A stretch of 64,000 bases of DNA, from contig QPGO01000011.1 of assembly GCA_008632985.1 (NCBI GenBank), forward strand, positions 310,001 through 374,000, written 5' to 3'. The stretch's first letter is position 1. Each line of letters starts with the position of its first letter. Shown in pieces: positions 12,750 to 51,481 of the stretch. The DNA comes from Psammoneis japonica (lineage: Eukaryota). Under the pieces are notes generated by a model. That model searched no databases, had not been told where the DNA came from, and saw nothing but the letters and a program-made list of their open reading frames with translations. A program made the position numbers and the translations under genes.

Positions 12750-15320
12750 CCCCGACGTTCTTCAATGCAGTTTTGCCTTTCGTTTGTTGACTTTGTTGAC
12801 ACCCAACGGAGTTTGCACTTTGCACAGGTCATCATGAAATGCAACTCCTAGAGATGGGACACAATTAGATGACGATTCATACACATGTTTTTCACATGTT
12901 TTGTTTGGTCCTGGTCAACTGGCAACACAAGAATGAAAGAAGCAAGTGCTGCAAAAGCAAAGTGGTGATTCAATCAAGTTCCCTGAAGTCAGACAGCATC
13001 AGCATGAGAGGAGTCAATGGTGTCTCACCCTGTGTTTGGCCCAAGCACGCCAATGATTTGTGAACTCAGAACTTGTTTTTCTCATGCACCCCATGGCTTT
13101 CTGCAGCCATGTGTTCACCCAGTGAACTGTCAAGCTCTTGCAATGTGTTTCTCGTGACATTGCTCAAGTGCTCTTTACACTGCTGGAAATTGCTCATCTG
13201 TGGCTTTTGCACTGCGTGTTTGCAAAACACAGTGTGGCATCTGGTCTTTAGGTGCTTGGGGGAGCTTGGCAGCTGCTGCATCATGAACTGCTTTTTGTGC
13301 AAGCAGTGGTTGTTTTGAGAGCAGCACCCTGATCAGGAAGACCAGATCACAAAAGAGATGCACTGGACGACGCATTTTCCTGGTCAACCACAAGAATCCT
13401 CCAGCAGGGCACCAGGTGCAGGCATGCACAAAGAGCAACACAAATGAAACTTGTTGTTGTGTGAGCATCTTTGCTGGGTGGACAGGCATCATTGGAGCTT
13501 GCATGTTGTGAGTGTCTCAGCATCTTCAAAAGACAGGTGTGTGGGTTGTTGTGTGCTGTTCTGAACAAGCTTGGCAACCCCAAAGAGATGTCCAAAAGAG
13601 AGCTGGCAAAGCTCCATTTTGCAAAGTCAAGTGCCATTGGAAAGCAGCCACAGAAGGAGTTGCTCTCAACTTGGGTGGGAATGAAGCTGCCATGCAAAAA
13701 CCCAAAAGAGAAGGGGGGGCACTCTGTTGGTTTGTCCACATGAGCCAAAGCAGCCAGCAATGAATTCTTCTGATGATTTTTTCCTCAGGCCAAGTGTCAA
13801 ACAGATCTTGCTTGTGTTGACAGTGCTCTCTGCTGCCAGCACTTGCAGCTGTGTTTGCTCAAACTGCTCAGTTGGAACCTCAAAAGAGGCTTGTGCAATT
13901 TTCTGAACTGTTGCATTCCCCCTCCCAAAATTGATGTGCATTTGTTTGCAAGGCACCAAGCAGAGCTCTGTGGAGTTTGGTCATCATCTTTGGGGCAAAC
14001 TTTGACAAACAAGGTGAGCAAACAACTCCAAAACATGTGCTTGCTCCTGCTGCCAGTGCACAGTGTGTGCAGAACAAAAAAGCTGTGGTTGCCCTGGCTC
14101 CAATCATCTCAGAAAGCTTGTTGTCTCCTCCCATTTGCCCAACCCCCTTCTCATCTGTGCCACCGCATCTCCCAGCCAAGCAAAGCCACAAAGCAAAAAC
14201 CAGAGATGACAACAAGACACAAAAGCATTGTTGAGATTCTCCCATGTTCAGCTGTTCACACCTGGTCAGCCTCTTCAGATTGCCTTCAGAAAAGCCAAAG
14301 CTGAGCCTTTTGCGAATGGTTGCTGATGAGAGAGTGCAGCATCTCTGCACCTGACGTCTCTGCGTGTCTGCACATCTTGCTGCATCTCTGATGTTTTGCT
14401 GCATTTCTTCACACATGACTGCAATCGTGCTTTGTTCCTCAAAGGAACTCTCACCTGTTGACTCAAGACCCCTGTGGCACACATTCACAGCCGTGAGCAC
14501 GGGTTGTGGTGAACATGACAGCCTCTCTGCAGACCTCATGCCACAGCCAGCTCATGTCCTTTTTTTCACCCTGTGTGCACACCTGCGCACACTTTGCTTT
14601 TTGGTTTTTTCCATGATGCCTGTGAACAGTCTGATCTTTTGTCGAAGCACTCCAGCTCTGGGTGGGACCTCGCACTGCTGAGCTGTGACCTGTGACATCG
14701 ACAGCTTTTTGGATCACACCGCATGTCACACAGCCATGTAGAAAGGCGTGAGACTTTTTTGAAATTTTGTGTCATTTTGTGGTGCACTTGTTGAGCAATC
14801 CGTCTAACAACTTTTGACATTTTTTGTTGCAGCACGATTCTACAATGTCTTGAGAATCACGTGGGGCAGGCACATTTGCGCAAAAACGTCGAGTGGCAAC
14901 AGGCAGCATTGCACCACAAACTTGGCCGTTCATTTGATGTTGAAGATGAATGTGTCCGTTGATTAAATTCTCACACTGCAGAGCTCACATGCAGAATTCC
15001 ATGGGCCCAATGTCACACGGAGTCCCGCCTGGAGAACTGGAGCCCGTGTCTGTCTTTAATTTTCTTCTTGCATGTGCTGCTGCAGGCCAAGAGTGCAGAT
15101 GTTTGCAGCTCTGGATGATGACCAGTGGCACCTGTGCTCTCATCGGGGGGGCCAGCTGAGTTTTCATTTTGCTTGACAATGCAGGGGTGCTGAAATGATG
15201 TGTGCCCACATGATGGCGCACGTGGTTGGTTGCCACACCTTCGCGGACAAAAGAGCTCGACATCGGACTGCTGCAATTTTGTTCCGAGGTCTCATGGGGC
15301 AGGTCCAATGCTGCACTAAA
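12750..15320. other. TpA-depleted hypermutated block 1 (probably TE-derived; contains a MITE)
   Basis: Only about a dozen TA dinucleotides in ~2.6 kb. TG/CA-rich. Six-frame ORFs are essentially Tyr-free and Cys/His-rich. Confidence 0.9.
14644..15050 (-). mobile_element. ~407-bp MITE of the GACGCGTTCCAG-TIR family, heavily TpA/CpG-mutated, 4-bp TSD TGTC
   Basis: Aligns by eye to the reverse complements of 39497-39780 and ~62350-62437. Flanked by tgtc at 14640-14643 and 15051-15054. Confidence 0.85.
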
Positions 15321-21200: not shown

Positions 21201-23479
21201 GAAACACTCAACTGGCCGCACCATGAGAGCGCAGGTCCATCAAGCCCAAAAAGCCCGCCGCCAAGCACCAAGAAGGTGCAGGACACTTGTTCTTTGACAC
21301 CCATCATGAAACTTTTTTCGACAAAACCTTGCAAGTGTGCTGTCAGACCACAAAAATGACACCATGCTGAATGAGAAGAAAGCACCAATGACTGTGATTT
21401 GAAGCTGTGAGCAACCTGGCTGCCATGCTGAAGAACACACACCAGAAGCCACCCCCGCACACAGCATGGCGCAGCGCCAGGCACAAAATTGTGCACATCA
21501 GAGAATGGAAAAAACTTCAAGAATGGAGCATGATGGCAAAACTTCCTCTCTCTTCTGGCTGGTGTGGTGATGGTGGGAGAGCAGCCTTGCTGCCGTGCAT
21601 CAAAGCATGCCAGACAGTGGCGCTTCTGCAGAAGAAGGTGCAGAACAAAACAAACACATGTGCCACAACCAAGTTTGATGATTTCCCATCACCCTCTTGT
21701 TGTGCTCATTTTGTTGCAGCAATCTGAGTGATGGCTGGTCTTTGTGAAAATTGGCAGCAAAGAACAAGAAAGCACTGCAAAATTCTGCCGGGCCACCCGG
21801 AAGCTGCTGACAAACCTGAGGAACATCTGCAAAAGACAAAAACCAAGCAATGACACCAAGATCTTGCATGCTTTCATTGCCCTGTGACAAAGCACTTGCC
21901 TTTGCAGTCCAAGCAAGAACAACAGCTTTTTTGTGAAAACAACCAACAAGTGCACAGCAGTGCAGCCATTGTGTTGAGTGTGGTGCTGCTGCTGCTTGAC
22001 ATGTGGTGACACCGCACATTGTGGCTGAAACAGGGAGGGGCATCTCCAGTGTAAATTTTTTGCACTTTTTGACTGCCCAGTTGCTCGTGTGTCAGCATTT
22101 TGTTGAAAATTCTGTGAGCACAGAGTGGTGCAGCATTGCACACCTGAGATCAAAAACAGCCAAGCCCAAAATCCAAAGGTGAGGCAAACTGACAACTGAC
22201 AACAGCTGCACCCACACAATTGTTGTGCAATGTCACTGCAAAGGTTTCAAGCAGCATGGCCTCAATCTTGCCAACAGAGAAGATGGCCCATTCATTGGAT
22301 GAATGTTGCCACATTTGGGTGGTGCAATGGCTGCATTCCAGACATGCACAAACGGCATGCATGTGCCACCCAACAGAACAGGAAACCACAAAATGAAACA
22401 ATGAAACATCTTTGTGCACAGAGACAAGCAAAAGCACCCTGACAAAAGATGAGCAAGGCACTCAAATGCACAGTTTGTGAGGTGGTGGGATTGACACAAT
22501 GGCACAATCAGCTGGGCTTTGGCACACACAATGTCAAATGCAACACCCAATGACTTCCGTTCCAAGATGGTCTCAGCAGACACTCACAAGACTTGTTCTG
22601 GGAGACCATTCTCAGGACCAAAAACATGCACAACTGGACTGAACTCGCAGAAAATGAAGGATCTTGTCACAATTTCCATCTGGCACCCAGATGCAGAAGT
22701 TGCAGCTGTTGCTGTGCAGATTGCTCAGTGCTGCTCCAGCAGTGCTGGAACCCACCTTTGCAGTGTGGAGCAGCAGACTGCTGGTGGCCACTGGAGGTGT
22801 TAAACATTGGAGGAGAGGCTTTTTTTTGCAGGACACACAATGTTGCAGGGAAGGACACACTGATGATTGTGGATGACCTGGTGAATTTGTGTTGCAGCTC
22901 AAGTTGAGTTGCAAGTCTGGTGCTCATGCTTTAGCTTCTGCATCCAACTGACACAATGACAGCAGTTGGCAGCATTGGGAAGAAGTTTGCAAGCCATGTG
23001 GTGAGTTGGGGGTTCATGAGACCGAGTGCACACCAGCTGGCAAGCCACAATTCTCCAACACAGAAGCTGAAATGGCTGGCTGGTGGGAAGTCATCAGGAA
23101 TCCCAGGGTGTGTGGTTTGTGTCAGCAGATTGTTGTGACAAACAAGCCAGCTGGATGAAAGCAAAGAGACAAGCTCTTGAGGGCTTCTTGCTGCCTGTGA
23201 GGAAGCTGCCAAGGGTCTGCTGGAGGAGGGTGTGGCAAAGTTGTGTCAGGCTGGGACAAAATGGGCGCAAGGGGACACAGCTGAGTGCAGAAGCACAAAA
23301 GACTCACAAAGGAGTGGGTGCAGGACACCATTGCCAAGTCAGGATGACAGGCAGATGGCCACACAGAAAGCACCAAGAATTGGCGAGCATGTCAGAAAAG
23401 AAAAGAATGTTTGGGCCAGAGATGCAGGTGCTGGCATCTCTGAGGCAGGAGAGTGTGCCAAAAGAGCCAGAGCATCCAT

Positions 23480-24170: not shown

Positions 24171-26461
24171 GTTTTGATGCGATGCAAGTGGCAGTGAGGG
24201 GATCTCCCTCACAAAAAGCTTTGGCAGTTGGGACATTCAAACAGCGGGACTTGGTGTCAGAAACAAAGAGGTCGCAGTTCCATGGGATGTCCGTCATTTT
24301 TGCGGGTGCAGCAGGGGTAGGAAAGCAGCCCTGTTGCCATGTCAAAGCACACTGGACATCAGTGCTTCTGCAGGAGAAGCAGCAGAAAACAACAAACACA
24401 TGTGCCACAACCAAGTTTGGTGCTTTCCTGTCACCCTCTTGATGAGTGGCTTTTGCTGTGGCAATCTGAGCGATGGTTGGTTTTTGTGAGCATTGGCAGC
24501 AAAGAACAAAACACTGCAACTCAGGGTGTCCAAAAGCTGCCGACAAACCTTGAGACCCACACAAAAGAAAAACCAAGCAACATGAACACCAAGATTTTGC
24601 ATGCTTTTGCTGCCCCATTGTTGTCACAAAACACTTGCCTTCACATCTCAAACATTTGCAGCTTTGTTGTGAACAACCAACAGTTCAGCAGTTGTGTGGA
24701 CATTGTGTGGCATGGCGCAACTTGAAATGTGATGGCAGCATGCATTTGACTGGCCAGTTGCTCATGCATCAGCATTTTGTTGAAAATTCTGAATGTGAGA
24801 ACAGAGAGTGGCGAGCACTGAGATCAACAATGGCCAAGCCCAAAATCCAAAGATGCGGCAATCTGACAGCCAACAAAGCAGCAGCTGCACCTGCAATTGC
24901 CGTGCAATGTTGACACTGCAGAGACATCAAGCAACAGCATTGTCCCAATCTTGCAAACAGAGAAGATGGCCCATCCATTGGACGAATGTGGAGTGTGGCC
25001 ACGTTTTGACAGAACAGCAGATTGGCCGCTGGGTGAGAGTGCTTTTGGGTTTTGAGCAGAAAGAGGTGCTCCTTGACATCTGCAAGGGAAATGCTGCCAA
25101 GCTGGCAGTTGATGACAGCAACCTGCCCATGGCAAATCACTGCAAGAAATGGATCAGATGCTGTGCACCAGACATGATGGCAGATTTCTGCCAACTTGTT
25201 TGCAACTTGATGTGCACAACCAGCATTGTGGCTTTCAGACATGGTGACAGGTCTGCCAACTTGGAATTTGCCAATGCATGGCAGAGCTCAAACAAGAGGA
25301 GGGCACAGCGAGGGAGAAGGCAAAGCAGACATTGCTTTTGGCAAACCAAAGAAGCGCACACCAGAACACCAGGGCATCACAAGCAGAGGAGCATTCTTCA
25401 GGCTTGGCACCAGCAGGAGTCACGCCAACAGGGGCAGGTGCTTGCCTCAAGGTGGGTTGAACAGATGTTTGGAGCAAAAGGCTCAGCAAAGAATCAAGGT
25501 TCATTTGCAACCCAGAAAGTGTCGAGAGATTTTGAGTGCAAAAACCTCAGCCCAGCACTCCCTTGCCCAGCCAGTGTGGCTGAGACTTTTTTGAAGCAAG
25601 CTGCACCAACTTTTGCCCAAAATGGAGAAAAGTTTCTCAAGGCTGTTGCAAGCACGAAAAAGCACTGGGCTGCAAAGATCTCTTGGACAAGAGAAAGGCC
25701 CAACAGAAGGGCAAGAGAAGGAGGAGGTGGTGGTGCATTTGCACTTGGTGAGCTGTTGCTTGCAAGGCGCACGGGCACTTGTGTTTTTGTGTGAAATTCG
25801 AAAACATGCGGTGGCGCCATGTCCTTGCGCCGCTCCTGAGAGATGTCTAAAACATGTGTTAAACACACAATGATGCGATCGGAGTAGCCATTTTTTGAGA
25901 CTGACCACCAAGATGCCAATCCAATGCAAACCCGGCTCACATTTTTTGGTTGGAGTTGCGTTCGTGTCTGTGATCCCGCCAAAAATGGGCAATAGAGTCT
26001 GTAGAAATGACAAATTAAATATAAGATTGCTCGTAGAAAATTTCGGATTTTTGAAACTGTTTCTATTGAATGAAATACTTTAAATGCTGTATACTTTATA
26101 TTTGTGCTCCTATTCAGAATTAACCACAACGGATATTTTCAGCAATAGTGACGAGTGCGTTGTAGAAATGAATATATATCATTATTAATAGAAATACAAA
26201 TCTAATATCTATTCATCACTTTAAATAAACATAGAAAGGTTTCTGGCGGAGTGCCTGTTTCAACACGACTGAAGAAGGAATATCAAGCTATATGAATGAA
26301 GTTTATATAACCCCAATTGGCTGACGTTTGGCACGCACCACCAAAAAAATCGAAGCCGGCACTGTGCCACATCGTCACTACGCACACCAACTTCCTTTGC
26401 ACCTGCATTGTTTCACCTGTTGCTGGTGACAACCTACGTCCTTTTCTAGAGTAGACTCTAC

Positions 26462-35012: not shown

Positions 35013-35330
35013 AGTGATGATGCTGTGTTGAAGAAGTGCTCAACCTGATGATAGAAAATACAAATACAAGTGCTGGTAGCAGCAACGGCAACGGCAACGG
35101 ATGGTGTTGTGTTGTGTGGGGTGGTGTTGTGGTGTGTGTATAGCGGTGCCGTGGTGTCGATGTTGATGTCGGGATGACATTTTTGGGAAACGCTTGCGTC
35201 ATCATGACGCAACAGGATCTTAGGCAGATCATGATCTTATTTCTTTTTTGTGGCGCTCGGCGCTGATCTTCACCGTAACCACAATCAATGCACAACAAAG
35301 CACGACCAACCAGCTATTGCCACCACAATC

Positions 35331-36372
35331 ATGACAAGCAATGAACCCACCCTTGTGGACTGCAAGATGCAGTGCTTCTTTTGGCATTGTGGGTTCGAGG
35401 GTTGTGGTCCCATGTTCCGGACGATTGGCGACATTGTCAAAAACAACAAGGACTTCTCAACAAAAAGATCGAACCCCATGTTGGTCCTCTGCAATTCCCC
35501 AACACGAGCAAGGAGGAATTGGTGTGGGCGGCTGCGTCACTGGCACCCCAGACGACATGCAAGACCCCCCAGAAGGCTTGGAAGAAATTGTGGTGCCGGG
35601 ATGGCAATGTGCGACAATTGTTCATCACGGCGATCATGCAGGAATGCCCAAGTCGTGGGGTCAGTTGTGCAAGGAGTGATTCTGTCACAAAACTTGCTTC
35701 CTGCCAAGGGTTCTTGGGACTTTGTTCGCTGCGAAGCTTGCTTGAATTCTGTTGCCTGTGGCACCGACCAGAAAGATCCAGAGACTCAGCTCTTTGCTCC
35801 GGTCGAAGACACCGCACCCGTTGGGAAGCCTGGCACAAAAATGGTCAGAATCTGTCTGAGCTTTGATGGAAATTGTGCCTTGGCATTCAACCATTGTTCT
35901 GCCGTTTTCCGAAACAAACTCAAAATGTCTGCCGCCTGCGGCGACTCGCCCATGAAGAACGATGTGCCACAGGAACGCTGCGACAAAATCCTGCACTGCA
36001 GTCTGGACATTGGCCTTGGCAAGAAATTCCAGCTCATGGGAAGTGGTTGCAATCCTGTCATGCACAAAGAGCCTCACACGGTGGGGACAACACCCAAGTT
36101 AGTTTGGAGCCTTCGAGCAAGGAAGAAGCCGATCGCGGTTGTTTGCCGAACTTGGCCAGGGGGGCAAAGTGATGATGCCCTTGGCAAAGCAGTTTTGGGG
36201 GTCCCATCACGGATTGCTCATTGACAAATTGGGTGTCCACTGGATGTTTGATTTTGAAATTCCAAAGGACGATGGAGAAGGAAAGAAGGAAGCCGATGTC
36301 CGGAGACCACAAGAATGTGCACCACAATTGGACGATGCGGCTGCAAAAGAGGCCAAGAAAGAGAAAAAATGG
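35331..36372 (+). pseudogene. GyrI-like small-molecule-binding domain + PhnB/VOC (glyoxalase-like) fusion pseudogene
   Basis: GLEEIVVPG.QCATIVHHGDHAGMPKSWGQL...RCEACLN (GyrI-like). ICLSFDGNCALAFNHC..VF, CGDSPM, DKILHCSL and FAELGQGGKVMMPLAKQFWGSHHGLLIDKLGVHWM (PhnB). Frameshifts; Tyr replaced by Cys/His. Confidence 0.8.
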
Positions 36373-36833
36373 GGCGATGATGCACTGCCATTTGTGGCTC
36401 AATCGTGTGGCAGCTCAGATGAAAGAAACCTGTGGCAGCCTGAAATGTGTGTCGGGTGCCATTGTTGTGGGTTGGAGCAATGTGCTGCCTCCCTTTCTTG
36501 TTTTGTGTCTCACCCTTGGCCTGAGTTGGCTCTTGGTGAAGACATTTGGACACAAGTTGTTGTCTTCCATTGCTTCTGAAGCTTTGCGTCATTGTCAACG
36601 ATGCACTGTGGGGCCCCACTGCAACCTCAGCTGGCGACGATTTGAGATTGCGTGCATCGCTGGATGCATGGGCACACGGGTGCAATCTAAAAAAATCTTT
36701 TGCCACACATGATCTTCAAAGCATCTTGGATGACTTGCAGTGTTCTTTGTTGTTGTCATCTGCTGCACTTTTAATCTGTTGTCATTGCTGTTGTTTTTGT
36801 CATCATTGGTGCAGTGCAAGAACAGCATGGCAC

Positions 36834-37037
36834 CCAAACAAAACATGTTGATGGTGAAACGATGGGACGAGCTGTGTCGTTGTTGGTTTGGTCGATTTTG
36901 TTCATCCGCAGTTGCCTCTTGACAGTGAAACCACCAAACAAAACATGTTGATGGTGAAACGATGGGACGAGCTGTGTCGTTGTTGGTTCGGTCGATTTTG
37001 TTCATCCGCAGTTGCCTCTTGACAGAGTGAAACCACC
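36834..37037 (+). repeat. Two-copy 100-bp tandem repeat
   Basis: caaacaaaacatgttgatggtgaaacgatgggacgagctgtgtcg... repeated with period 100. Confidence 0.95.
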
Positions 37038-37278
37038 AACAACAAGTCACTCCATGTCGTTCGTGGTGTCCATTCATCCATGCCCTTTTGCATCAAGTGC
37101 GTGTCAGAGAAACAACACAAGATGATGATGAGGATGACAACAAAATTGCAGAGATTGCAAAAAACAATGCATTTCTTGATGAGAGCTTGAGTGCATTTTG
37201 ATCCAGACATTGAGATTTTGCAACCAAACAATCTCCCCACCAATTGAGTGCATGCCATGTCTCCTGCATTAAAACAAT

Positions 37279-37957
37279 TTAGAAGAAACCTTTGTCCTTG
37301 AAATGAGAAGCCCGCTTCTTGGCACGTTCCTTGGACAGGTGACACACTGGTTGTCCTCATCGAACATGCATCCGACGAACTTGCCATCAACCTCAGCTTC
37401 GGAGGCTTGGTGATCACGGCCATCTGTGCTGGTCATGCCACAGACCTTTGCTCCAGCATTGGTCAAACAAAGGCACAGTTCTCTGGCAGCATCACAGCAA
37501 AAATTGAAGCAGGGCTGTTGGTCGCCAACTCCAAAGATGGCCTCTTTCTTTCCCCTTCATGTCAACATTTGGGAGGGTGTCGCAGAGCCCATGTGAACAG
37601 TCAACAATGAGAGGTGACTGGGTCACTTGGCTTTGGACATCAGGTCATGGCAGGTGAAGTGCACCATTCATCCCAAGCGGTTCCAGAATGCTCTGTTTTG
37701 GAGTCTGTCTGCCACGTGGGTGCTCCAACAATCAAAGCATCAGCTCGTCCAGCAATGTTGTCATCAGTTGCATCGCCAATGTCATTTGATTCAAGGCCAG
37801 ATGCATCAGAGATGTGCCCAGCATGAGTTTCAGTGTTCCCTGTTTGAGAAGAACACCAAATGCTGATGGCATTGAGAGCAGCAGAAGAAGAACCTCCAGC
37901 AGATGGAGCAATCAGGGTGAAGGCACTGGTGGCAAGAATGAGGAAAACGATGCCAGT
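37279..37957 (-). pseudogene. fld: Plastid flavodoxin pseudogene (one intron ~37589-37664, frameshifts)
   Basis: ATSAFT presequence, IWCSSQTGNTETHAGHIS, ALIVGAPTW...SGTAWDEW, LCDTLP, AIFGVGDQQ, CDAA.EL, AEVDGKFVGCMFDEDNQ, ...KGFF*. Confidence 0.9.
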
Positions 37958-39496
37958 TTAAATCTGTGTGGTGTTTTGCTTCTTGGTTGCATCAAAATGC
38001 AACACTTGTGAGATGGAAAGGGATGGTGTGTGCTGCCCTGAAGAGTGCTCAGGTGTCAATTGATGACATCATTGATGTGGGACAGAAAGCGCAGCACGTG
38101 GATGACCCGTGCTTGATCCTTGAATCACAAAATGAGAGCCACAGAGTGCCTTGACACTGGCAGCTGCCTGAATGATTTCTCTGTGCCTCGCTCCAATGTT
38201 TTGTGTTTTGTGGCTTGCATCTTGGATCTTGCTTGGATTCATGCATTGCGCATGCACTCTGGTGCACAATTTTAGGATCTTTGAGTGACGACACATGGGA
38301 CGAACACCAAACACCCCACACCAGCACATGCTGCACATGTGCGCACACATCACACCCCCAACATGTTGGCACACAGCATGCAGATTGCACAGAGTTGAGG
38401 CACAGGACAGAAATGAAAGATGGTCAGGCCAAACCAATCCTCAGGCAAATGACAAACCAAGCTGGCAAGGTGGCAGGGCATGCTCTGGGTGGTGACAACA
38501 GGAAGAAATTGATGAAAACCTGCCAGAGTTGACAATGACATTGATGCAACAGTTGAGGTCAAGCACACAGTTGTGAGCTGGGGAGCAGAGCACAGCGCCA
38601 CAGGGCGGCTGTGTCTTCTTGGATTGATGCCACCACCTGTCTTGGCACAAAAAAAGGGTCAATTTTGCCTGCTGTGCTCCAAGTCTCTGGTCTTGAATTT
38701 CCTGTGTGACCCACTCAACTTGAGCATTTTGTGAAACCTCTTGGCAGCTCTTGCTCCTGTCTTGCTTTTGCCCTCACCCCCCCACCCCCCCCAGGGACAG
38801 AGAAGCACCCAAGGTGCAAAAGCATCATCAATCGCCTGCTCTTCAAACCATTGTCTGTGGCAAAAACAGAGTGATGTCAGTTGTTCCTCATGGCACTGGG
38901 CAGATGAAAATGACAGAGCTGGCTTTTTTGCAGCACATTTGTTTTGGGCTGGAATTGAAGTGCAAAGAGGATGAAACACAGCAGCAACAACTCTGCAGCT
39001 GATGCCACCCTCCACTTGTGACCAACAAAAAATGTTTGAAACTTTGCACTTGTGTTGTGTCAGGAGTTGGTTTTTGAGTGTGTTTTGTTGAAAACAGGGT
39101 TCTTGTGGTCACACATGGGAACATGAGGTTGGGCCTCACAGCTGCAGAGCACACCCCCGGCCGTCCTTTCTCCACAAAAGCAACAATGTCTCACCTTTTT
39201 TTGTGGTCCATTTTTTGTGTTGCTTGTCTCACCTCTGCTTTGTGACTTTGACAACAGCACATCAATTGCAAGGAGACATGAGCTTTGTTCCTTCCTGCAA
39301 GCCTCAGCACAGCAAACCTCTGAGCTGATGTTTCCACCAGCTTTGAGTTGTTGACAAAAACTGGCACCTGAAATGAGCAATTTGCTGGATGCTTGTTTTG
39401 TCACCAGGCGCCAAAGTCATCAAGAAAGAAAATGATGTGGCACTTGCAACACTTGCCAAAAGGACTTTGGCGCAGCTGTGTGGAAGGTCGCATGAC

Positions 39497-39780
39497 GACG
39501 CGTTCCAGCCCTAGGTGGGACTCCGTGTGACATTTGGCCCGTAGAATTCTACGTGCGAGCTCCGTAGTACGAGAATTTAATTAATGGATATATTTATCTT
39601 CAACATCAAATAAACGGCCAAGTTTGTGGTACAATTATGCCTCTTACCACTCGACGTTTTTGCAAATGCACCTGCCCTACGCGATTCTTAAGACATTATA
39701 GAATCGCGCTGTAACAAAAAATGTCAAAAGTTTTTGGACGGATCGCTCAATAAGTGTACCGTAAAATGACACAAAATATC
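39497..39780 (+). mobile_element. Young, unmutated copy of the GACGCGTTCCAG-TIR MITE, truncated at the assembly gap (N at 39781)
   Basis: Starts gacgcgttccagccctaggtgggactccg after flank ...gcatgac. Normal TA/CG content. The left flank (~39401-39496) reappears after the N without the element. Confidence 0.85.
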
Positions 39781-42700
39781 NTCACCAGGCACCAAAGTCA
39801 TCAAGAAAGAAAATGATGTGGCGCTTGCAACACTTGCCAAAAGGACTTTGGCGCAGCTGTGTGGAAGGTCGCATGACATGGAGCCCAACAACAAAGGCAT
39901 CTGGGTTGTCAGATGAGGGTGCGGACTCACAAACAAGCACAGTGCCACAAAAAGCAGATGCCAAATGGCACTCTTGCTGGATTGTTCCTCTGTGACCCCA
40001 AGTGCAGTGAGGACTTGCCTTCTTCTTCATCATCGTCTTCTTCTTCTTCTTCTTCTTCTTCTAACTTTCAGAGTGCTTGTGGCTGGAGTTTTCAAGAACC
40101 TGCAAGTGCCAGCCAATGGTCCACTCATTCCTTGAATTTGTGGGAAGTCACATTTTGTCCTGCTTGGCAGCTCTTGCCAGCAAAGAACACTCTCTCAAAC
40201 AAATGCCATCTGTGACAAGGTGGGGGGTGGTTGTCATCACAGCAAGCTGTGTGGTTGATGATTTGTTGATTTTGTGATGGACCTGGGACCTGGCCACACA
40301 AGTGACATTGAAGCAGCATGCAGAAGAAGTCAAGGGCACATGATGGGTTCATGGAGTTTGTGAGTGCAGAGGATTGTGTTTGCATCTCAAAGGCCAAGCT
40401 TTGTGAGAGACAATTCAGCCACTGCCAACAAAAGAGGCTTTGCAACTTGCTCTGGACTGGACAACAGAGCATGCCAAGAAGCAAGAGAGGTTGTGCTTGC
40501 TTCACACAAGACCAAGACTCTTTGCCCCAGCCTCCATGGAAACAAGCAGAGCACACACAGCAGCCCAAGCCAAAATCTCAGCTTTTGCCATGCTGCTGCA
40601 GGTCAAGATCATCACACATGGGAGCCAGTGCCAACCTCACACAACGTGGAATTGCCGCCAAACAAACACACCTTGGTTGAGACCACTGCCGCTGTTTGCA
40701 GCATTTTGGATGCAAGTGGTGGTGATGAAAGCTCAGGCTATGAGCCACTGCATGATGTCTTTGTGAACAGCCCCTGGTTGCCACACCTGGTCTTTCTTTG
40801 CTGGAAGCCTTGCCAAAGATGAGCCACTACCTGCTGCCAGCAAGCACCAACAAGCCCACTGCATTTTCTGGCATCACTTTTGAAGAGGCAGAGCACCCCT
40901 GCCCACACCTCAGCTGCCAGCACACTGGCTGCAGATGAAGTTGTTGATGACAACACAAATCCACATGTGGCCAGCCAGCTTTCCATCCTTCTCAAACAGG
41001 CCACACTTCTCAACTCTTCTCCTGTGTCACATCTGATCATGCTTGCAAAGGCAACAGCACAAAAGCCATTGCTGGTCCACCCACAGATGAAGATGGTGCC
41101 CCTCTGCTGCTGTCACAGGGTGGGCACTCTCTCAGCACTGTCAGTTTTGATGAGTTGTTGGGACAACTGCTGAGCTGAGATGCACTGCACCATGCACATG
41201 TTGGCAGAGGGAGGACAGCTCTGGAAATGTGGCAGCTGCACAGACCAGGGCTTCACTCAATTGCCACAAGAGAGCAGCTGCAAAGAAGAGCCCATGGTTG
41301 ACTTTTTCTGTGCTGTCTTGCTGCACTCAATCAAGCCAAACCCTTGAAGAGTGGGCAACACTGACAGAGAGTGGTGTTTTTTGCATCGTTGTCACAAAAA
41401 CATCATTGTGTTGCCAACTTGCAAGACAAATTTCAGAAGCCAAAGGGCCAATCTGCAAAAAAGGTTTGTGCTGCCAATGCCTCTGCACTCTTGTGGATGA
41501 TGGGTGCATGATGTCTTGAGGTGACTGGAGTTCCTGAAAGCCAGAAGCATTCTTTTGTGGCGTGGCCATTGTGTCAGAGGATGTTTTGGACAATGACATG
41601 AGACCTGGCCTGTGGCTTGCTCCCTTTGTGCATGACAAGCACTCCAAGCTTCTTGCTCATGAGCACCCAAAACCATGGAAAGCTCTTTTGTGGGCTGGAC
41701 ACATCAAATCTCTTTGTCCACAATTGTGCATCAAGATTTGTGCGCATTGTGCAGCAAAGGACTGGGGCTGCTCTGCATTGAAATTTGACTTCTTTTGCAG
41801 CACATGCTTGTTTGGGAAGAGTGGCAAATGTGATTTGTCCATGGGCCATGCCAAAGCCATGCACTCAGCTTTAGAAATGGTGTGGCATGCTGCTGGACCC
41901 AGCACACTTTTGATTGAATGTCAGTGCCCCATTGGCACAGCCATGGGCCACGTTGATGGAGTGCATGTTTCCACAGATGCTGGACCAACATGGCATCCTG
42001 CCTTTCCTTTCCCCAAGAATGATCAAGAGACACTGTCAGCTTTGAAGAGCATGCTCTGGAGTTCCATGTCAAGAGCATCTTTTGGACATTGATGGCAGCA
42101 CAATGAGACCCAGACTGTTGTCTCCTTTTTGGCAACAGCGCCAAGTTGACAGATGCAGAGATGGCAAGTGCTGCATTGGCAGCAAACACAACATGTTCTT
42201 GCTCCTGTCAGATGACTCAACCAAGTGTGCCACTGAGTGCCAATGCACTCTGAGCAAAGTCCATCCCATGACGGATGCCACAGCCATTCCACTGGACCCA
42301 CACAGCTTTCCTGAGATTGTGGTGTCTGGACCGCTGCAACTGGAAATTTGATGAAAAAGCAGCACATGACAGTCTCACCAAATTATTTGATGTTGCAAAA
42401 AGCAAGACAGCAATGCTGCTGCAACATTCTTTGGGAGGTGTGCCTCATTTCATGCCAGCAAGCCTTGGTCAGTGCCAAATGAGAGGAAGCCAACTTGCAT
42501 CTGCTTTGCATCAGGCATGGGTGCATGGACGGTGGTGCTTTCATCAATGAGTGGCCATGACGTGCCGAAAATCATGCAGACTCCTTTATCTTCTCTGCAC
42601 CCACCACCAGAGATGGAGTGGGAAGAGGTGTCGCATGATGAAATTGAGCCAACGAAATCTCAGAAACGAAGCACAAACGGCCACCACGTGTTTGCCTTGC

Positions 42701-43186
42701 TTGTGCTCGTCAATCTGCACCTGGATTCCAGATCAAGATCATCTTGCTGCACAGCACACTGGGTGGAGCAAGCTCATTGACGTGCATGCCACGGAGATTG
42801 TTCACATTCGGCCCGTCTCACTCAACATGCCTCAATGTGTGGGTGGCGATTTACACTTTTCCTGTGGAAGTGAGGTGAATTCGTTCTAATCAACGGCATC
42901 CAGTGTCAACCTGTCGCTGCAGAAAGATTGGCATCGCAAGGGGTCCATCTTTTTGCATCTCCCACGCCAAGAATGTCAACTCTATTTCCGTGACTGTCAA
43001 TGGTGTCCCCATTGATCGCAAGGTCATTGGCTGGGATGTCGTGGCCAACACCCCGCGTCATCACGATGCACCACCACCAACTTGCCTAGGACGTATCATT
43101 CCAGTGTCTGTCGTGATTCACGCAGATCAATCAATCAGAGCATGATGCCAAGTAAATCCTAAATTCTAGAGGAAACTAAAAATATC

Positions 43187-44473: not shown

Positions 44474-45964
44474 ATTAGTATTACTGGTAAGGCTGTTATC
44501 AGTCTCAAGTCTCACCTTTTCGCTGCTTTACGCTTTGGTAAGTGGTAGAGTGTTATGAAGGTTATGGGTTGCCAGTTCTGTGCGTGTGCAAAAGATTGGA
44601 AGATGCGCGAAACACAAAAAGATCGTACGCGGAACTTCCCTCCGACACAGAATATAACGGACGGTGGCAAGTAAAGTGCGTGTGTCTGAAGCGCCGAAAG
44701 AAACGACGTTGGGAACCGAGCGTGGTTGTTGACGACGACACATGCGAAGAGGAGGATGGCTGAAAAATGGCCATTTGAAAACTTTGTATCCGTTGAGCCA
44801 ACACCTTCATTGCACTCGCAAAACCTGATCCTAACAATCGTGAAATGAGTCGTGCTTCGGAATTCGTGTAGAATCTACGCATTCCCTAGTATGTAGCTGA
44901 GCGTGATAGCTTGAAGCTGAGCGTGGCGGCTGCGATCGGAACATCACTCACTGCTCACAATCCATCGAAACAGAGGATTGTCAGGGTTGTTTTTGGGGTA
45001 AGAACGAAGGCCGCGGTTTGTATTGTATGCTTTCTCAACCATGGACTTTTCTATAGCCAAGCCAGACAACGCCTTCGTGATGCCTGTCACCGCCATGATC
45101 GCCGTCGACTCGGAGCAGTAGTGTTCTCAGTCTCGTGTCGTGGAGGAACTGTAATGTCGTGTTTGGACTCTGTCTGGTGTTTGTTCAGAGTCCATATTCG
45201 CCGCGCAGATTCTCCAAGACATGAGATTGAGGGTTTCGTGTCGACGGTTTGATACCCCGATTGTGGAGCGCCGCACATGCCGTCCGTCTGATTGTCTGTT
45301 TTCATTCGTAGGTTGAGGAGGAGTGTATCAGTGTCCATGATGCTGTTCTTTCCTTCAATATCTATGATTGGAACTTTCATGATGATGGATAATTGTGGTG
45401 ATTGGTAGGGTTACGCTGGATTCTGCTTGGGTGTAGTTGAGTTCATTGTCGTTATTGCGTATGATATGCCGGGTTCTTCCTCCAGTACAAAACGATCCTT
45501 GGTGACGAGAGCGTTCTGAGACATGAAAAAAAGGAAGCAAGCACTAGAACCGGGACTCTGTCAATGTTACTGTGGAAATGCCTTCCCGCAGGACAGGGGG
45601 TGATCGGCTAGTGACTTTGTTATCCACCAAAGTCTATACCGTGTGGTATTATTGAGCATTGAAAAAAGAAAAGAGGCCAAACTAAGAATAAGGAGTGAAT
45701 AGCATCTGAGGTGAGAAAGGGTATAAGACCCTGCTAAGTGGTGTAAAAGGCGAGCTTAGTAGTACGGCATCCCCCTCCTCGGGCACAGCTGCCCTGGCTC
45801 AGGCCCACAGAACGAGAAAAAAAATACTCTCCACCAAAACCCCGGGGCAAAAGACCCCTACTCAACAATCTTCCAGTTCAAGGCTTTGTATGTATTAAGG
45901 TACAGTACAGTAGTATTTCCTTTCTTGTTTTTTGGTGTAACTTGAAGACTTTAAATTAGAAACA

Positions 45965-46135
45965 AGCATACTACGATGCGCTCAATACGCGATACTGGTA
46001 GTGTCATGATAGCGACTGTAATGAACTCTATGCAAATATTATGGTATGAGGTATTGACTGACATAGCTGCGATGAACCAAAAGGGCTGAGTCGATGACAG
46101 GTAGGGCTCCATAGTTGGTATGGCGTCACTCTCAA
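45965..46135. repeat. Diverged duplicate of ~50875-51047 (probably paralogous gene relics on the minus strand)
   Basis: Shared tacgatg.gctcaatacg.gatact, gaactctatg, tgacatagct and gctccatagttggtatggcgtcactctca. Confidence 0.75.
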
Positions 46136-47239: not shown

Positions 47240-47976
47240 ATCCCCGCTCGCGCTGTGCATAGCATGCTATGCACAGACATTTTTGCGAATTATCGCCAAA
47301 ATCGCGCATGTGCATAGCATGCTATGCACAACACAATTTTTTGGCGCCTTTTGGTCATCCTATTAATCAACTACTTTGAAGTGTCTGGAAAGACCTTATT
47401 GTGTCAAACATGTCAGACGCCTTTGACGTTCCTATTGACCCACTTGAAGCGGTTGATGTGGTACACGTGTAATGAGATTCAGCGATTCACGTAGAAATGA
47501 CGTAGAAAAATACTTGTGTAACTCCTCGTACAAAAGCTACGCATTAGCCTCGCCAACAAGTGTCTCCACTTCCAAGGTCATTGGAACAAGAAAGCTGCTA
47601 TTTTAAAGGCTGTCCAATAAACATGTTAACAAGTATTGACTCATCGTCAATAAACGCTATCTATGTCCTAATGAAACGAGGTACTTGGAACTTGAGCGAC
47701 TCAAACCTTGTGCATAGCATACTATGCACAACGTAGAATTCTACGTAAAAAATCCCGCCAAAATTGACCAACTTCTGTGGCATTAAACAGCTATGTAAGC
47801 CCCATGGCGGAAGCTGTCCTTTTCAGCCTGTTTCGATCGTCGAGTGTACTGAAAGGTTCGGTATGTGTCAAGAAATGTAATGTCTCGGGGAAGTTTCGCG
47901 ACACCTCTGAAACGTTGTGCATAGCATACTATGCACAGTGCGCGCGGAGTGGGGTTATGGTAGACAGAGATGGAAT
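47240..47976. repeat. Palindrome-rich putative transposon end: four TGTGCATAGCAT(G/A)CTATGCACA copies plus ACGTAGAATTCTACGT
   Basis: Copies at 47254-47275, 47309-47330, 47709-47730 and 47916-47937; 16-bp palindrome at 47731-47746. Confidence 0.85.
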
Positions 47977-49571
47977 CACTCTCCATCGTGAGTCTATGCG
48001 TCGACCGTTCTTCGCGCGCGCGCTCGCACGCACCCGAAGGTCTCCTCATAGACTCTCGCGGAAGTAAGACGGACGATGTACCAGGGTCGTATGTAGGCCG
48101 TTTGTTACGGTGCCGTTTTTCCGTCGCACCGGCGGGACATGCTGTACATGCCGCAAGCTCATTGCTGTTATAGGCATGAACGACTCCCAAGGCTATCTAG
48201 CACTGTAGAATGAATCTTTTGTTGGGACGTTTCGAGCACAACATGACAAAACCCCACAGCCACACAACTGCTGCACAGCTTCTCGTTCCATCTTTCACAA
48301 TCGGACGTGTTGGTCCTTTTCTCTCGGCTCGATCGCGCTGGCCACACATGGAATGCCAGCTCTCCTCGTTCGTTTCTGTGGTCAGGGTGATGCACCCAAC
48401 ATTTGTTCCACAGTTCATCAATCACCAAGAACTGCCACACCAGCAGGTGATCGCAAGCCAGTTGCTGTGGAAGCCAAAAAGAGACGGGAGGAAGATGCAA
48501 GCAGTGAGAACATCCAAGACACAGATTTCAAGATGAGTCAACAATTGTGAGCAAAATCACAACACCAACTTGCCAATTAACCTTTGCGCACATTCTTTCG
48601 TGTCTCCTGTGTGCATGTGCTTGTCGCTGTGACCCTGTTTGTCTCATGCCATTGCTAGAGACATTCACACTGTCGCGAACTGATGAAATCCTGTGCGAAG
48701 CACAAGCCCCATTGAGTGAGTTTGAACACCAACAAGTGACAACATTGTCACAGGAGCTTGCCTCCTTTACTCAGCGGCACTGAACGAGCACAGTCAATGC
48801 ACTCAAATCTACCCAAGCGGCAAGAAATCGACACAACCGTCCAAAAATCTCCAAAAATGTCATAAAACAGCGATGCCCAACCGAAAATGAGACACCAGAC
48901 TGTCTTTGCCTCAAATCTCAGAGCTGTGGTCAAACCACGCCTCATGCAGACACCAATGAACAACACCAAGGCATTGCATGGACTGAGAACCTGTGTGACA
49001 ACGAGGAAGAGCCCAACCCGTGAGTGAGCACATTTCTGGCAAAAAATAAAAAGCCATTTCCCACAAACGACAGAAACAACGGTTGTGCTGCAAGAAAGAC
49101 AATGCCATTGCAAGACAATGACGAAAACATGCACAAGTTTCCATGTCATAACTTGCAGGGCGCAACGGAGCGGAACATGCGACGACAATCAACGACACAT
49201 GTCAGCACCTGCCGAAAAAGTGACGATTTTGCACTCAGTCAGTCTCGGGGATTAATCAATCAAAAATTTGCCAATTTTCTCCGTTCCAACACCATGGTGC
49301 GCTTCAACAGCGAGCATCCGAGTGACCACTGAACGGTGCAAGGCATGGCTGTCGACACGCCGATGAAATCGATCATCGTCGGAACGGCACATTTTCTGGT
49401 GTGTTTTGTGTAGAAAGCTCTGTAGAGCGTTTCGCCAAATCCAGGGAGGCACGGTAACAAATTTTGAGCCAGCGTCCGTCTCACTTCCGCGAGAGTCTAT
49501 GAGGAGACCTTCGGGTGCGTGCGAGCGCGCGCACGAAGAATGGTCGACGCACAAACTCACGATGGAGAGTG
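47977..49571. mobile_element. Non-autonomous Mutator/MULE-like element, ~99-bp TIRs, 9-bp TSD AGATGGAAT
   Basis: TIRs 47977-48075 and 49473-49571 (about 5 mismatches). agatggaat at 47968-47976 and 49572-49580. Interior ~48210-49400 is TpA-depleted. Confidence 0.85.
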
Positions 49572-49843
49572 AGATGGAATGAAGTGAGTTCAGCCCGCGA
49601 CGTGTTCGGTGTTCGGGCTTGGGTTCATTGCCAGATCGGAAGTGCGAGGCGCACGCAATCTTGACGCACGTAGAAACATCGCAGGCCTCTTTTCCCCAAA
49701 TGAAAACCGTTGTGGACGTCACTTTTTTTGAAAATCCGCGAGAGAGCGGCCAAATGGGGAGGTCCACGTAGAAATGCGTAGAACCTCCTTTCCCCATTTT
49801 GGCGATTTCACACGACAAAATTGTTCTCGCGATTTCGCGCGTT

Positions 49844-50650: not shown

Positions 50651-51481
50651 TGCATTTTGCAATGGGCGTCGGCATGAAGCTGAAGGCATGTTGCCCATGG
50701 AGCGAGGAGGTAACATTTCGGCGGCGTAGAGTGCTTCGGCGGAGCTTTGGCAATACCTGCATGGGCGTTTCATATAATTTGGGATTTAGATATTGTAAAC
50801 GAGAATGTGCACAATGGGATTTCGTCAGTTCTTGCGTTTCACAAGTTTATGAGAAATTCGAAACAAACATACTCTAGTACGATGTGCTCAATACGTGATA
50901 CTCTAGTAGTGTTATTATAGCAATTGTGAAGAACTCTATGGATTTATCATAGAGCGCATTGAATGACATAGCTATGCACAGCGAATCGAGAAAGGATTAA
51001 GTCGATGGCCGAGGTAGAGCTCCATAGTTGGTATGGCGTCACTCTCAGGACTGAAGACTGAAGCACTGGAAGAAGCTATCATAGCACCAGCAGCCTATCT
51101 CATCCGCAAATCTCATCGCCGATCCGCATCTTTGTTCCTGCCATCCTCAATATTAGTAGCGTCAATCCTCATCACCATGGCGCAACAAGAACAAACCGTA
51201 GCTTTCCATGGGCGCTTGTGGAGGCTGTTCCCCACCCGTAGAGACTCAAATTCGTACGAGTTGTGGTCCATGCCTCAGTTTATGGCGTTGTACAGACAAA
51301 AAGCGCAAAGAACCCATTGAGGTGAAATTCAAACTGTGATTGGGGCAGAGAGATCATCGGCCGTCGCGGCCAAAGTTCTTTCGAAAACGTATGTGAAGCG
51401 TGGGAGCATTCTCGTAGCACGGGCGCCAATAGGTGTCTCGTGAAAGTGGAATCCAACCACAACGCATTTCGAGTTAGCAAT

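Follow-up and report, generated by a model that had tools for sequence, protein, structure and literature searches.

Was this gene killed by the loss of the dinucleotide TpA, or was it already dead when that loss was written onto it? The question is raised by a flavodoxin gene of the diatom Psammoneis japonica, which lies in a stretch of 64,000 nucleotides of contig QPGO01000011.1 that was analyzed as a whole and is here called the window. A domain search characterizes the window as gene-rich eukaryotic DNA (PCNA, glutamine amidotransferase/SIS, Cys/Met lyase, ribulose-phosphate epimerase and Bud13), and this gene-rich DNA is interrupted by blocks of a few kilobases that are nearly without TpA. 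A first-pass annotation, made from the letters alone, had described the flavodoxin gene in one of these blocks as destroyed by TpA mutation, its splice acceptor included. The features on which the argument turns are collected in Table 1.

Table 1. Features of the flavodoxin gene and its surroundings (positions in the window; strand where it applies)
Feature	Position	Strand	Remarks
TpA-erased, CpG-poor block with the flavodoxin gene	35320-42980 (about 7.7 kb)		left TA edge sharp; CpG loss fades there
Second host-type pseudogene, GyrI-like plus VOC/PhnB (YjdN-like)	35330-36400	+	left edge of the block
Stretch beside the flavodoxin stop codon with an unmutated relative in the sample	37033-37161 (129 nt)	+	records 8 (run X1) and 12
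Flavodoxin pseudogene, exon 2	37279-37588	-	Tyr98 to Cys at 37511; Cys103 kept; stop codon TAA kept
Exon 2, invariant Trp to Arg	37314	-	homolog alignment
+2 frameshift	37339-37343	-	common to window and short-read contig
+1 frameshift	37548-37551	-	spliced message would terminate after codon 129
Tyr codon (Tyr in 130 of 130 homologs)	37582-37584	-	TGC (Cys) in the window, CAT (His) in the X1 contig
Flavodoxin intron	37589-37664 (76 nt)	-	divides a Trp codon (TG/G); donor GT kept (GTGCAC)
Flavodoxin pseudogene, exon 1	37665-37957	-	signal/transit-like leader, FMN phosphate loop, Trp56; without Met
Exon 1, Tyr to His	37816	-	homolog alignment
Exon 1, Tyr to Cys	37855	-	homolog alignment
In-frame TAA at the Met position of homologs	37958-37960	-	start codon lost, not via a TA step
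Older copy of a small repeat	14761-15047		18 of 22 alignable TA sites now TG or CA (7 TG, 11 CA)
TA-rich young copy of the small repeat	39498-39780		23 TA; inside the block

The flavodoxin pseudogene and its clade

Judged by its sequence, the minus strand of positions 37279-37957 is a pseudogene of a clade II (iron-responsive type) diatom flavodoxin. The NCBIfam model FldA matches exon 1 at E 1.6e-10 and exon 2 at E 7e-15, both as fragments that score under the curated cut-offs, and the locus is matched by diatom flavodoxin homologs in tblastn; Pfam applied to the two exons alone gave no match at E 0.01, the best E of a later run being 0.016. The six motifs named in the first-pass annotation (IWCSSQTGNTE, AGHI, LCDTLP, ELC, KVCG and NQC) are all present on the minus strand, and its reading of the locus as a dead plastid-type diatom flavodoxin is borne out by the FldA matches, the two frameshifts and the missing start. 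The leader resembles the ASAFAP signal of diatoms, a likeness visible in the alignments alone. A second top match of the protein search (P0002) was dropped as a low-complexity repeat.

The intron that divides the Trp codon ends in CATGG rather than TAG, as had been claimed, and the acceptor triplet TGG is one TA to TG step from TAG; AG occurs three times inside the intron and not at its end. The position of the intron is backed by ten fetched proteins that read into it or stop at it there. Six of these ten read W-Y-V, which implies a donor beginning with GTA, as against GTG in the window.

Clade II flavodoxins carry His57 and Cys103 and are induced by iron limitation, and those of clade I carry Asn57 and Ala103 and are linked to oxidative stress (Graff van Creveld et al. 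2023, PMC10287166). With Tyr98, Cys103 and position 57 numbered by alignment to 2FCR, the pseudogene has Cys at position 103, as in clade II, and at position 57 a Gln codon (CAG) that is one change from His and two from Asn. In a quick IQ-TREE analysis of 52 rows it falls within the His/Cys group, apart from the Asn/Ala rows, as sister of two Seminavis robusta copies with a modest support of 85, on a long branch (0.97) and in no starred set. These two copies are also the closest named homologs. Set against the clade II FLDA proteins described in that study, the locus is alike in its FldA matches, its plastid-type leader, Cys103 and its place in the tree, and differs in having no start, a broken acceptor, two frameshifts, Cys for Tyr98 and Gln for His57; of the features of the clade, an intact frame and the FMN-stacking Tyr98 are absent from it. 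About half of the taxa surveyed there, mostly from transcriptome data, appear to encode one flavodoxin clade only (PMC10287166). Since many diatoms are apparently of this kind, loss of the clade II gene would be unremarkable in itself, and its value as a finding is limited.

Loss of tyrosine and other damage in the gene

Tyrosine columns were defined in an alignment of the 79 full-length sequences among 118 fetched homologs, a column being kept where Tyr occurs in at least 40% of them, which gave ten columns. The pseudogene reads Cys in seven of these and His, Arg and Trp in one each; the Trp is a natural variant found in 13 of the 79 homologs, and eight of the nine changed columns therefore read Cys or His. 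Among the homologs, Cys or His fills 5 of the 632 cells of the conserved Tyr columns, which fixes the direction of change from TA to TG or CA by protein conservation, as the first-pass annotation had argued. Its statement that conserved Tyr residues now read Cys or His holds overall, with the exception of the KVCG column, which is weak (Tyr in 39 and Phe in 37 of the 79 homologs). No Tyr is left in the pseudogene, as against at least seven in each of the 79 homologs, and the FMN-stacking Tyr98, which is Tyr in 130 of 130 homologs, has become Cys. The gene span of 679 nt holds a single TA, that of the stop codon, where the TA frequency of the TA-normal parts of the window predicts 28.7 (P ~1e-11), and the process has thus reached a host-type gene, as had also been claimed. 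The Tyr pattern is far beyond chance; the 7:1 ratio of Cys to His, taken within this gene alone, is not significant (P 0.07).

Damage of other kinds was assessed over 167 columns against 130 full-length homologs, drawn from 208 fetched, a residue being scored as aberrant when no more than 1% of them carry it. The pseudogene holds 30 aberrant residues, as against 2.3 ± 2.2 in the intact homologs (n = 130; maximum 11). Taken codon by codon, nine of the 30 need a TA step, six a CG step, one either of these and 14 neither, and on these counts the claim that the gene was destroyed by TpA mutation is not supported as it was worded. The 14 residues of the last class include the replacement of an invariant Trp by Arg, of Gln by His and of Leu by Phe. 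Some of them may be native to the lineage, since the closest homolog is 58% identical to the read-through (130 full-length homologs, from the best 120 of 1289 and of 491 matches).

The expected yield of dinucleotide erasure was gauged by simulation in back-translated homologs. Erasure of TA created 14.9 new aberrant residues, and erasure of TA together with 67% of CG created 23.2 (about ± 4, maximum 35), the latter more than the 16 residues of the pseudogene that are assignable to TA or CG steps. The observed 30 lies inside the simulated range, so that the total alone is no proof of extra damage, and the case for damage beyond TA and CG erasure comes from the codon classes and the indels. The two frameshifts and the lost start codon are not TpA events. 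The first-pass annotation had missed both frameshifts, the absent start codon and many of the non-TpA changes.

Three invariant codons have been altered via TG to CG or TA to CG, at 37314 (Trp to Arg), 37400 (Lys to Glu) and 37418 (Tyr to Arg, a residue other than Tyr98). As a lead for further work, these changes would fit a weaker A-to-G activity at CpA, and such an activity may regenerate CpG and so explain why the blocks never exhaust their CG.

It is conceivable, though we think it unlikely, that the TpA mutator itself killed the sole working clade II flavodoxin as it spread in place from neighboring repeats across live single-copy genes, and that the remaining damage came later. Loss of either the TAG acceptor or Tyr98 to a single change would have been sufficient. 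The 14 residues that neither step explains, together with the two frameshifts, point instead to long neutral decay; selection would also oppose hits on a useful gene, and fixation on both haplotypes would need the gene to have been dispensable beforehand.

Haplotypes, copies and the order of events

The read data comprise three runs (X1 to X3) of one sample from one study, none of them on record as RNA; X1 may be the sample of the assembly itself, and no second strain is represented. A contig of X1 (record 7, depth 55.3) spans 37008-38700 and differs from the window by 15 other letters and 3 gap letters in 1692. Gap letters lie at 37024 and 38117, which makes both frameshifts common to the window and the contig. 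None of the 14 listed differences (of 15) restores a TA; the contig shows the same damage and not the intact TA-containing gene that, by the first-pass annotation, would refute its reading. A second haplotype thus appears dead in the same manner as the first. From position 35399 on, 14 of the 24 listed differences set CG against TG or CA, in both directions (40 of 82 rows listed; the five of the relative described below excluded).

At the level of this sample, the independent contig with its 15 other and 3 gap letters refutes an origin of the pattern in the assembly or in a reverse-transcribed copy of ADAR-type hyper-edited RNA, both of which we consider extremely improbable. An assembly artefact could draw on probable long-read indel errors nearby, such as that at a G run, and on the one N in the window. 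An edited RNA copy is contradicted by the retained intron and by the joint presence of TA to TG and TA to CA changes, which cannot arise from one edited strand. Indels of 1-2 bases relative to the short-read contigs occur at 35713, 36087 (the G run), 36300, 36553 and 38117, several of them at base runs. The assembly thus probably carries long-read indel errors, and single frameshifts elsewhere in the window need checking for this reason.

One Tyr codon, at 37582-37584, has taken opposite outcomes in the window and the contig (Table 1). On the simplest reading, one TA would have been alive there when the haplotypes split and would later have been resolved both ways; the swap could alternatively have arisen through a CG intermediate. 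If the opposite outcomes at 37583-84 are direct, this TA outlived the shared frameshifts, and an invariant Tyr (at least one) that seems to have kept its TA past the frameshifts argues against a mutator that struck a working gene. A second CA/TG swap between window and contig is found at 38601-38602. These two swaps in 1693 nt compare with about 36 expected had TA loss followed the split, which places nearly all of the TA loss, like both frameshifts, before the split. As both are that old, their relative order cannot be read from the end state.

The number of gene copies bears on the same question. The depths of neighboring allele pairs add up to 67.6 and 65.8; for one diploid locus with this many differences about 57.5 is predicted, near the 55.3 seen over the gene. 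Across 37232-38471 the depth equals that of record 7 exactly and no other contig was placed at 80% likeness, by a method that drops some records. The gene is therefore probably, as far as depth and read placement indicate, one locus that is dead on both haplotypes. This depth and the want of a second contig are what would be expected if the mutator had killed the sole copy, and the retained intron, which speaks against a retrocopy, favors the same sequence of events.

The flavodoxin may also have been a redundant duplicate, carried by a segmental duplication or as passenger of a mobile element and silenced and mutated as a repeat, with an intact clade II gene at work elsewhere and hence no loss of function; we rate this as somewhat unlikely. 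Relatives of the 129 nt beside the stop codon, and of pieces at 38489-38552, exist elsewhere in the sample. The Seminavis robusta homologs come in two copies, and transcripts of at least two clade II copies are known from several diatoms (PMC4460010). An intact source copy would be expected, by estimate, to be about 82-87% identical, close to the 80% floor of read placement, and a distant paralog would be missed. Against a duplicate, record 7 alone adds depth over the gene, though pieces of less than 90% likeness were placed nearby; the other 359 letters of the 129-nt relative found no placement on the flavodoxin; and a Pfam search of the block, run on 68 reading frames at E up to 0.5, gave no transposon domain, though decay may hide one. 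Homolog searches seeded with homologs returned no protein more than 58% identical (again from the best 120 of 1289 and of 491 matches), a result with which a paralog is still compatible. An intact clade II gene somewhere in the genome, whatever its relation to this locus, is a possibility that we take seriously while leaning towards its absence.

The relative of the 129-nt stretch keeps both CG and TA, and its 5 listed differences (of 11) all give CG or TA in the relative. Its depth in run X2 is 70.6, as against 7-17 at the epimerase end; an Atlas search of 37031-37198 gave no match. Run X2 comprises 30 million letters, its longest record measuring 16 kb; its share of the words, 0.22, is about that of the epimerase gene, and its cover within the block is confined to this relative. 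It resembles a transcriptome, but is not on record as RNA. Run X3 gave no match to the window.

TpA-erased blocks and the process behind them

Six blocks in the window, 23.7 kb together, have observed/expected ratios of 0.03 for TA, 0.27 for CG and 1.79 for TG/CA, compared with 0.60, 0.97 and 1.16 in the 33.8 kb outside them, the flanking genic DNA serving as no more than a stand-in for the ancestral composition of the blocks. The TA that survives in the blocks is found in particular flanks: none of 50 is in an RTAY context, as against 423 of 1428 outside (P 6e-8), and 32 of 50 are in a YTAR context, as against 236 of 1428 (P 3e-13). TAC and TAT are fully lost and TAA is kept most. From this contrast in survival, the preferred target appears to be an A preceded by T and followed by a pyrimidine. 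Strand choice by flank in pairs of repeats goes in the expected direction in 9 cases as against 4, which is too thin to use.

A small repeat present in a young and an older copy (Table 1) gives the same signature: besides the TA sites, 9 of 18 CG sites have become TG or CA and about 13 of 203 other sites have changed. The young copy keeps its 23 TA inside the block, so that the process would appear to act slowly, or in episodes, compared with insertion. That copy lies between 96-nt direct repeats (39401-39877), an arrangement due either to a target duplication of unusual length or to an assembly join; the only N of the window is at 39781, at the edge of the copy, where an assembly join is possible.

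The second host-type pseudogene of the block, at its left edge, matches GyrI-like (E 1.6e-4, Pfam), YjdN (E 1.2e-4, NCBIfam) and PhnB-like (0.93) models. It holds 1 TA in 1071 nt and 43 CG where 71 are expected; with TA nearly gone beside CG partly kept, TA loss is seen to run ahead of CG loss. The same observation lends support to a mutator that came first. This pseudogene seems to be a domain fusion and stands head to head with the intact epimerase gene; its VOC part is in a single frame in the haplotype of the contig, but is interrupted by a CpG-derived stop. As a query for homologs, its mixed-frame reading yielded none among 381 candidates.

Repeats of other kinds occur in and around the blocks, and no credible Pfam domain of a transposon or virus was found in 132 frames of the other blocks and intergenic parts, nor any viral domain in the 68 frames of the flavodoxin block searched for transposons above. 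A 100-nt tandem duplication at 36834-37039 is 97% identical and has no TA in either copy, and is therefore younger than the erasure of TA. In the block at 18.6-25.9 kb, two copies that are 70% identical (21572-22306 and 24316-24989) are both TA-erased and gave no Pfam match. Inverted repeats of 103 nt, 94% complementary (47976-48078 and 49470-49572), flank 1.4 kb of TA-poor, CG-rich DNA, and this element (47976-49572) is possibly a young DNA transposon partway through TA loss. Outside the blocks, two related AT-rich stretches that are 75% identical (45953-46134 and 50854-51047) have kept their TA (17 and 19).

The nearest described counterpart comes from mutation-accumulation lines of the chlorarachniophyte Bigelowiella natans, in which two integrated viral regions undergo TpA to TpG/CpA changes at about 1000 times the background (Mettrop et al., bioRxiv 10.64898/2026.01.13.699255). 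There the targets are NCLDV/virophage DNA; as in the diatom, the changes affect both strands and are confined to regions, and genome-wide clusters that are TpA-poor and rich in CpA and TpG include some with host-type domains. The diatom, a stramenopile, differs in that erasure is nearly complete, the observed/expected TA of its blocks being 0.03 as against 0.45 in the Bigelowiella NCLDV region. It also differs in losing CpG alongside, in that its blocks of a few kilobases lie between ordinary genes, and in its target, an intron-bearing host gene; both recognizable genes of the flavodoxin block are of host type, as against viral targets in Bigelowiella. The T-A-pyrimidine preference seen here is not reported in the available text of the preprint. 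The Bigelowiella rate was measured in living lines and the diatom signature is known from sequence, by which the locus would seem to work like the Bigelowiella process while differing in host, completeness, target and the accompanying loss of CpG. A rate of the Bigelowiella order would let TA hits precede other damage once a region is targeted, as killing of the gene by the mutator requires.

Repeat-induced point mutation (RIP) of ascomycete fungi (see PMC2621366) makes TpA from CpA, by C:G to T:A changes, and is triggered by sequence duplication. In RIP as in the diatom blocks, transitions specific to a dinucleotide ruin silent or repeated DNA region by region and can extend to neighboring genes; RIP is opposite in direction, the blocks losing TpA and gaining CA/TG. 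As to a duplication trigger, the flavodoxin is at single-locus depth with no paralog placed, but the stretch next to it does have an unmutated relative. DNMT5-dependent CG methylation of diatom transposons (Hoguin et al. 2023, PMC9998398) accounts for the CpG to TpG/CpA component of the footprint and offers no route from TA to TG/CA; by analogy, it points to methylation and silence of the blocks.

A long-dead clade II flavodoxin in a silenced block, written on by three mutational processes, is the reading that we hold to be probable, with appreciable doubt. A region-targeted mutator acting on both strands would have converted TpA to TpG or CpA throughout the gene, sparing the stop codon alone; methylated CpG would have decayed to TpG/CpA; and ordinary substitutions and indels would have accumulated without selection. 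The end state, the direction of change, damage of all three kinds and its sharing by a second haplotype are seen in the sequences themselves. The simplest chemistry for the first process would be that an enzyme preferring T-A-pyrimidine deaminates adenine in DNA and leaves inosine, which is read as G. Tyr codons are TAY, the best target of such an enzyme, and hence no Tyr survives, Cys being the usual replacement, and TGG stands in place of the TAG acceptor. The enzyme may be of the TadA/ADAT type and guided to CG-methylated silent chromatin. Loss of function or silencing would have come first, and the TpA process would then have locked the loss in beyond reversal instead of having dealt the initial blow.

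The same footprint might be produced without adenine deamination, by T to C changes due to oxidized or modified thymine or to an error-prone polymerase at silent DNA, which we think rather unlikely. In sequence, A to G at TpA is indistinguishable from T to C on the opposite strand, and a natural TpA-specific DNA adenine deaminase has yet to be demonstrated, the ADAT2-like deaminase being put forward as a hypothesis in the available text of the Bigelowiella preprint. The flank effect, on the other side, resembles that of an engineered TadA variant with a YAC context (PMC13109818), as a likeness and not as proof. Adenine deamination of an already silent gene is retained as the simplest account. 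The more far-reaching proposal, in which a natural DNA adenine deaminase of TadA/ADAT type, aimed by silent chromatin instead of by the pairing of repeats, spread over single-copy host genes and fixed the loss of the only iron-responsive flavodoxin on both haplotypes, is doubtful.

In the openly accessible literature, a search for TpA hypermutation in diatoms found no report, the Bigelowiella preprint being the sole relevant match, and no flavodoxin pseudogene of diatoms was named by title among the 20 matches listed of 219. The locus offers a case in which the direction of mutation is fixed by a conserved protein without an intact DNA copy, and provides a clean marker in a diatom of a TpA mutator that in print has been found for one unrelated alga only. 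Should no other clade II copy exist, the organism would be unable to replace ferredoxin by flavodoxin when iron is short. That a working flavodoxin gene was killed by TpA mutation is possible but unlikely; were it true that the mutator removed the sole clade II gene, a genome defense would have permanently erased a core trait of low-iron acclimation.
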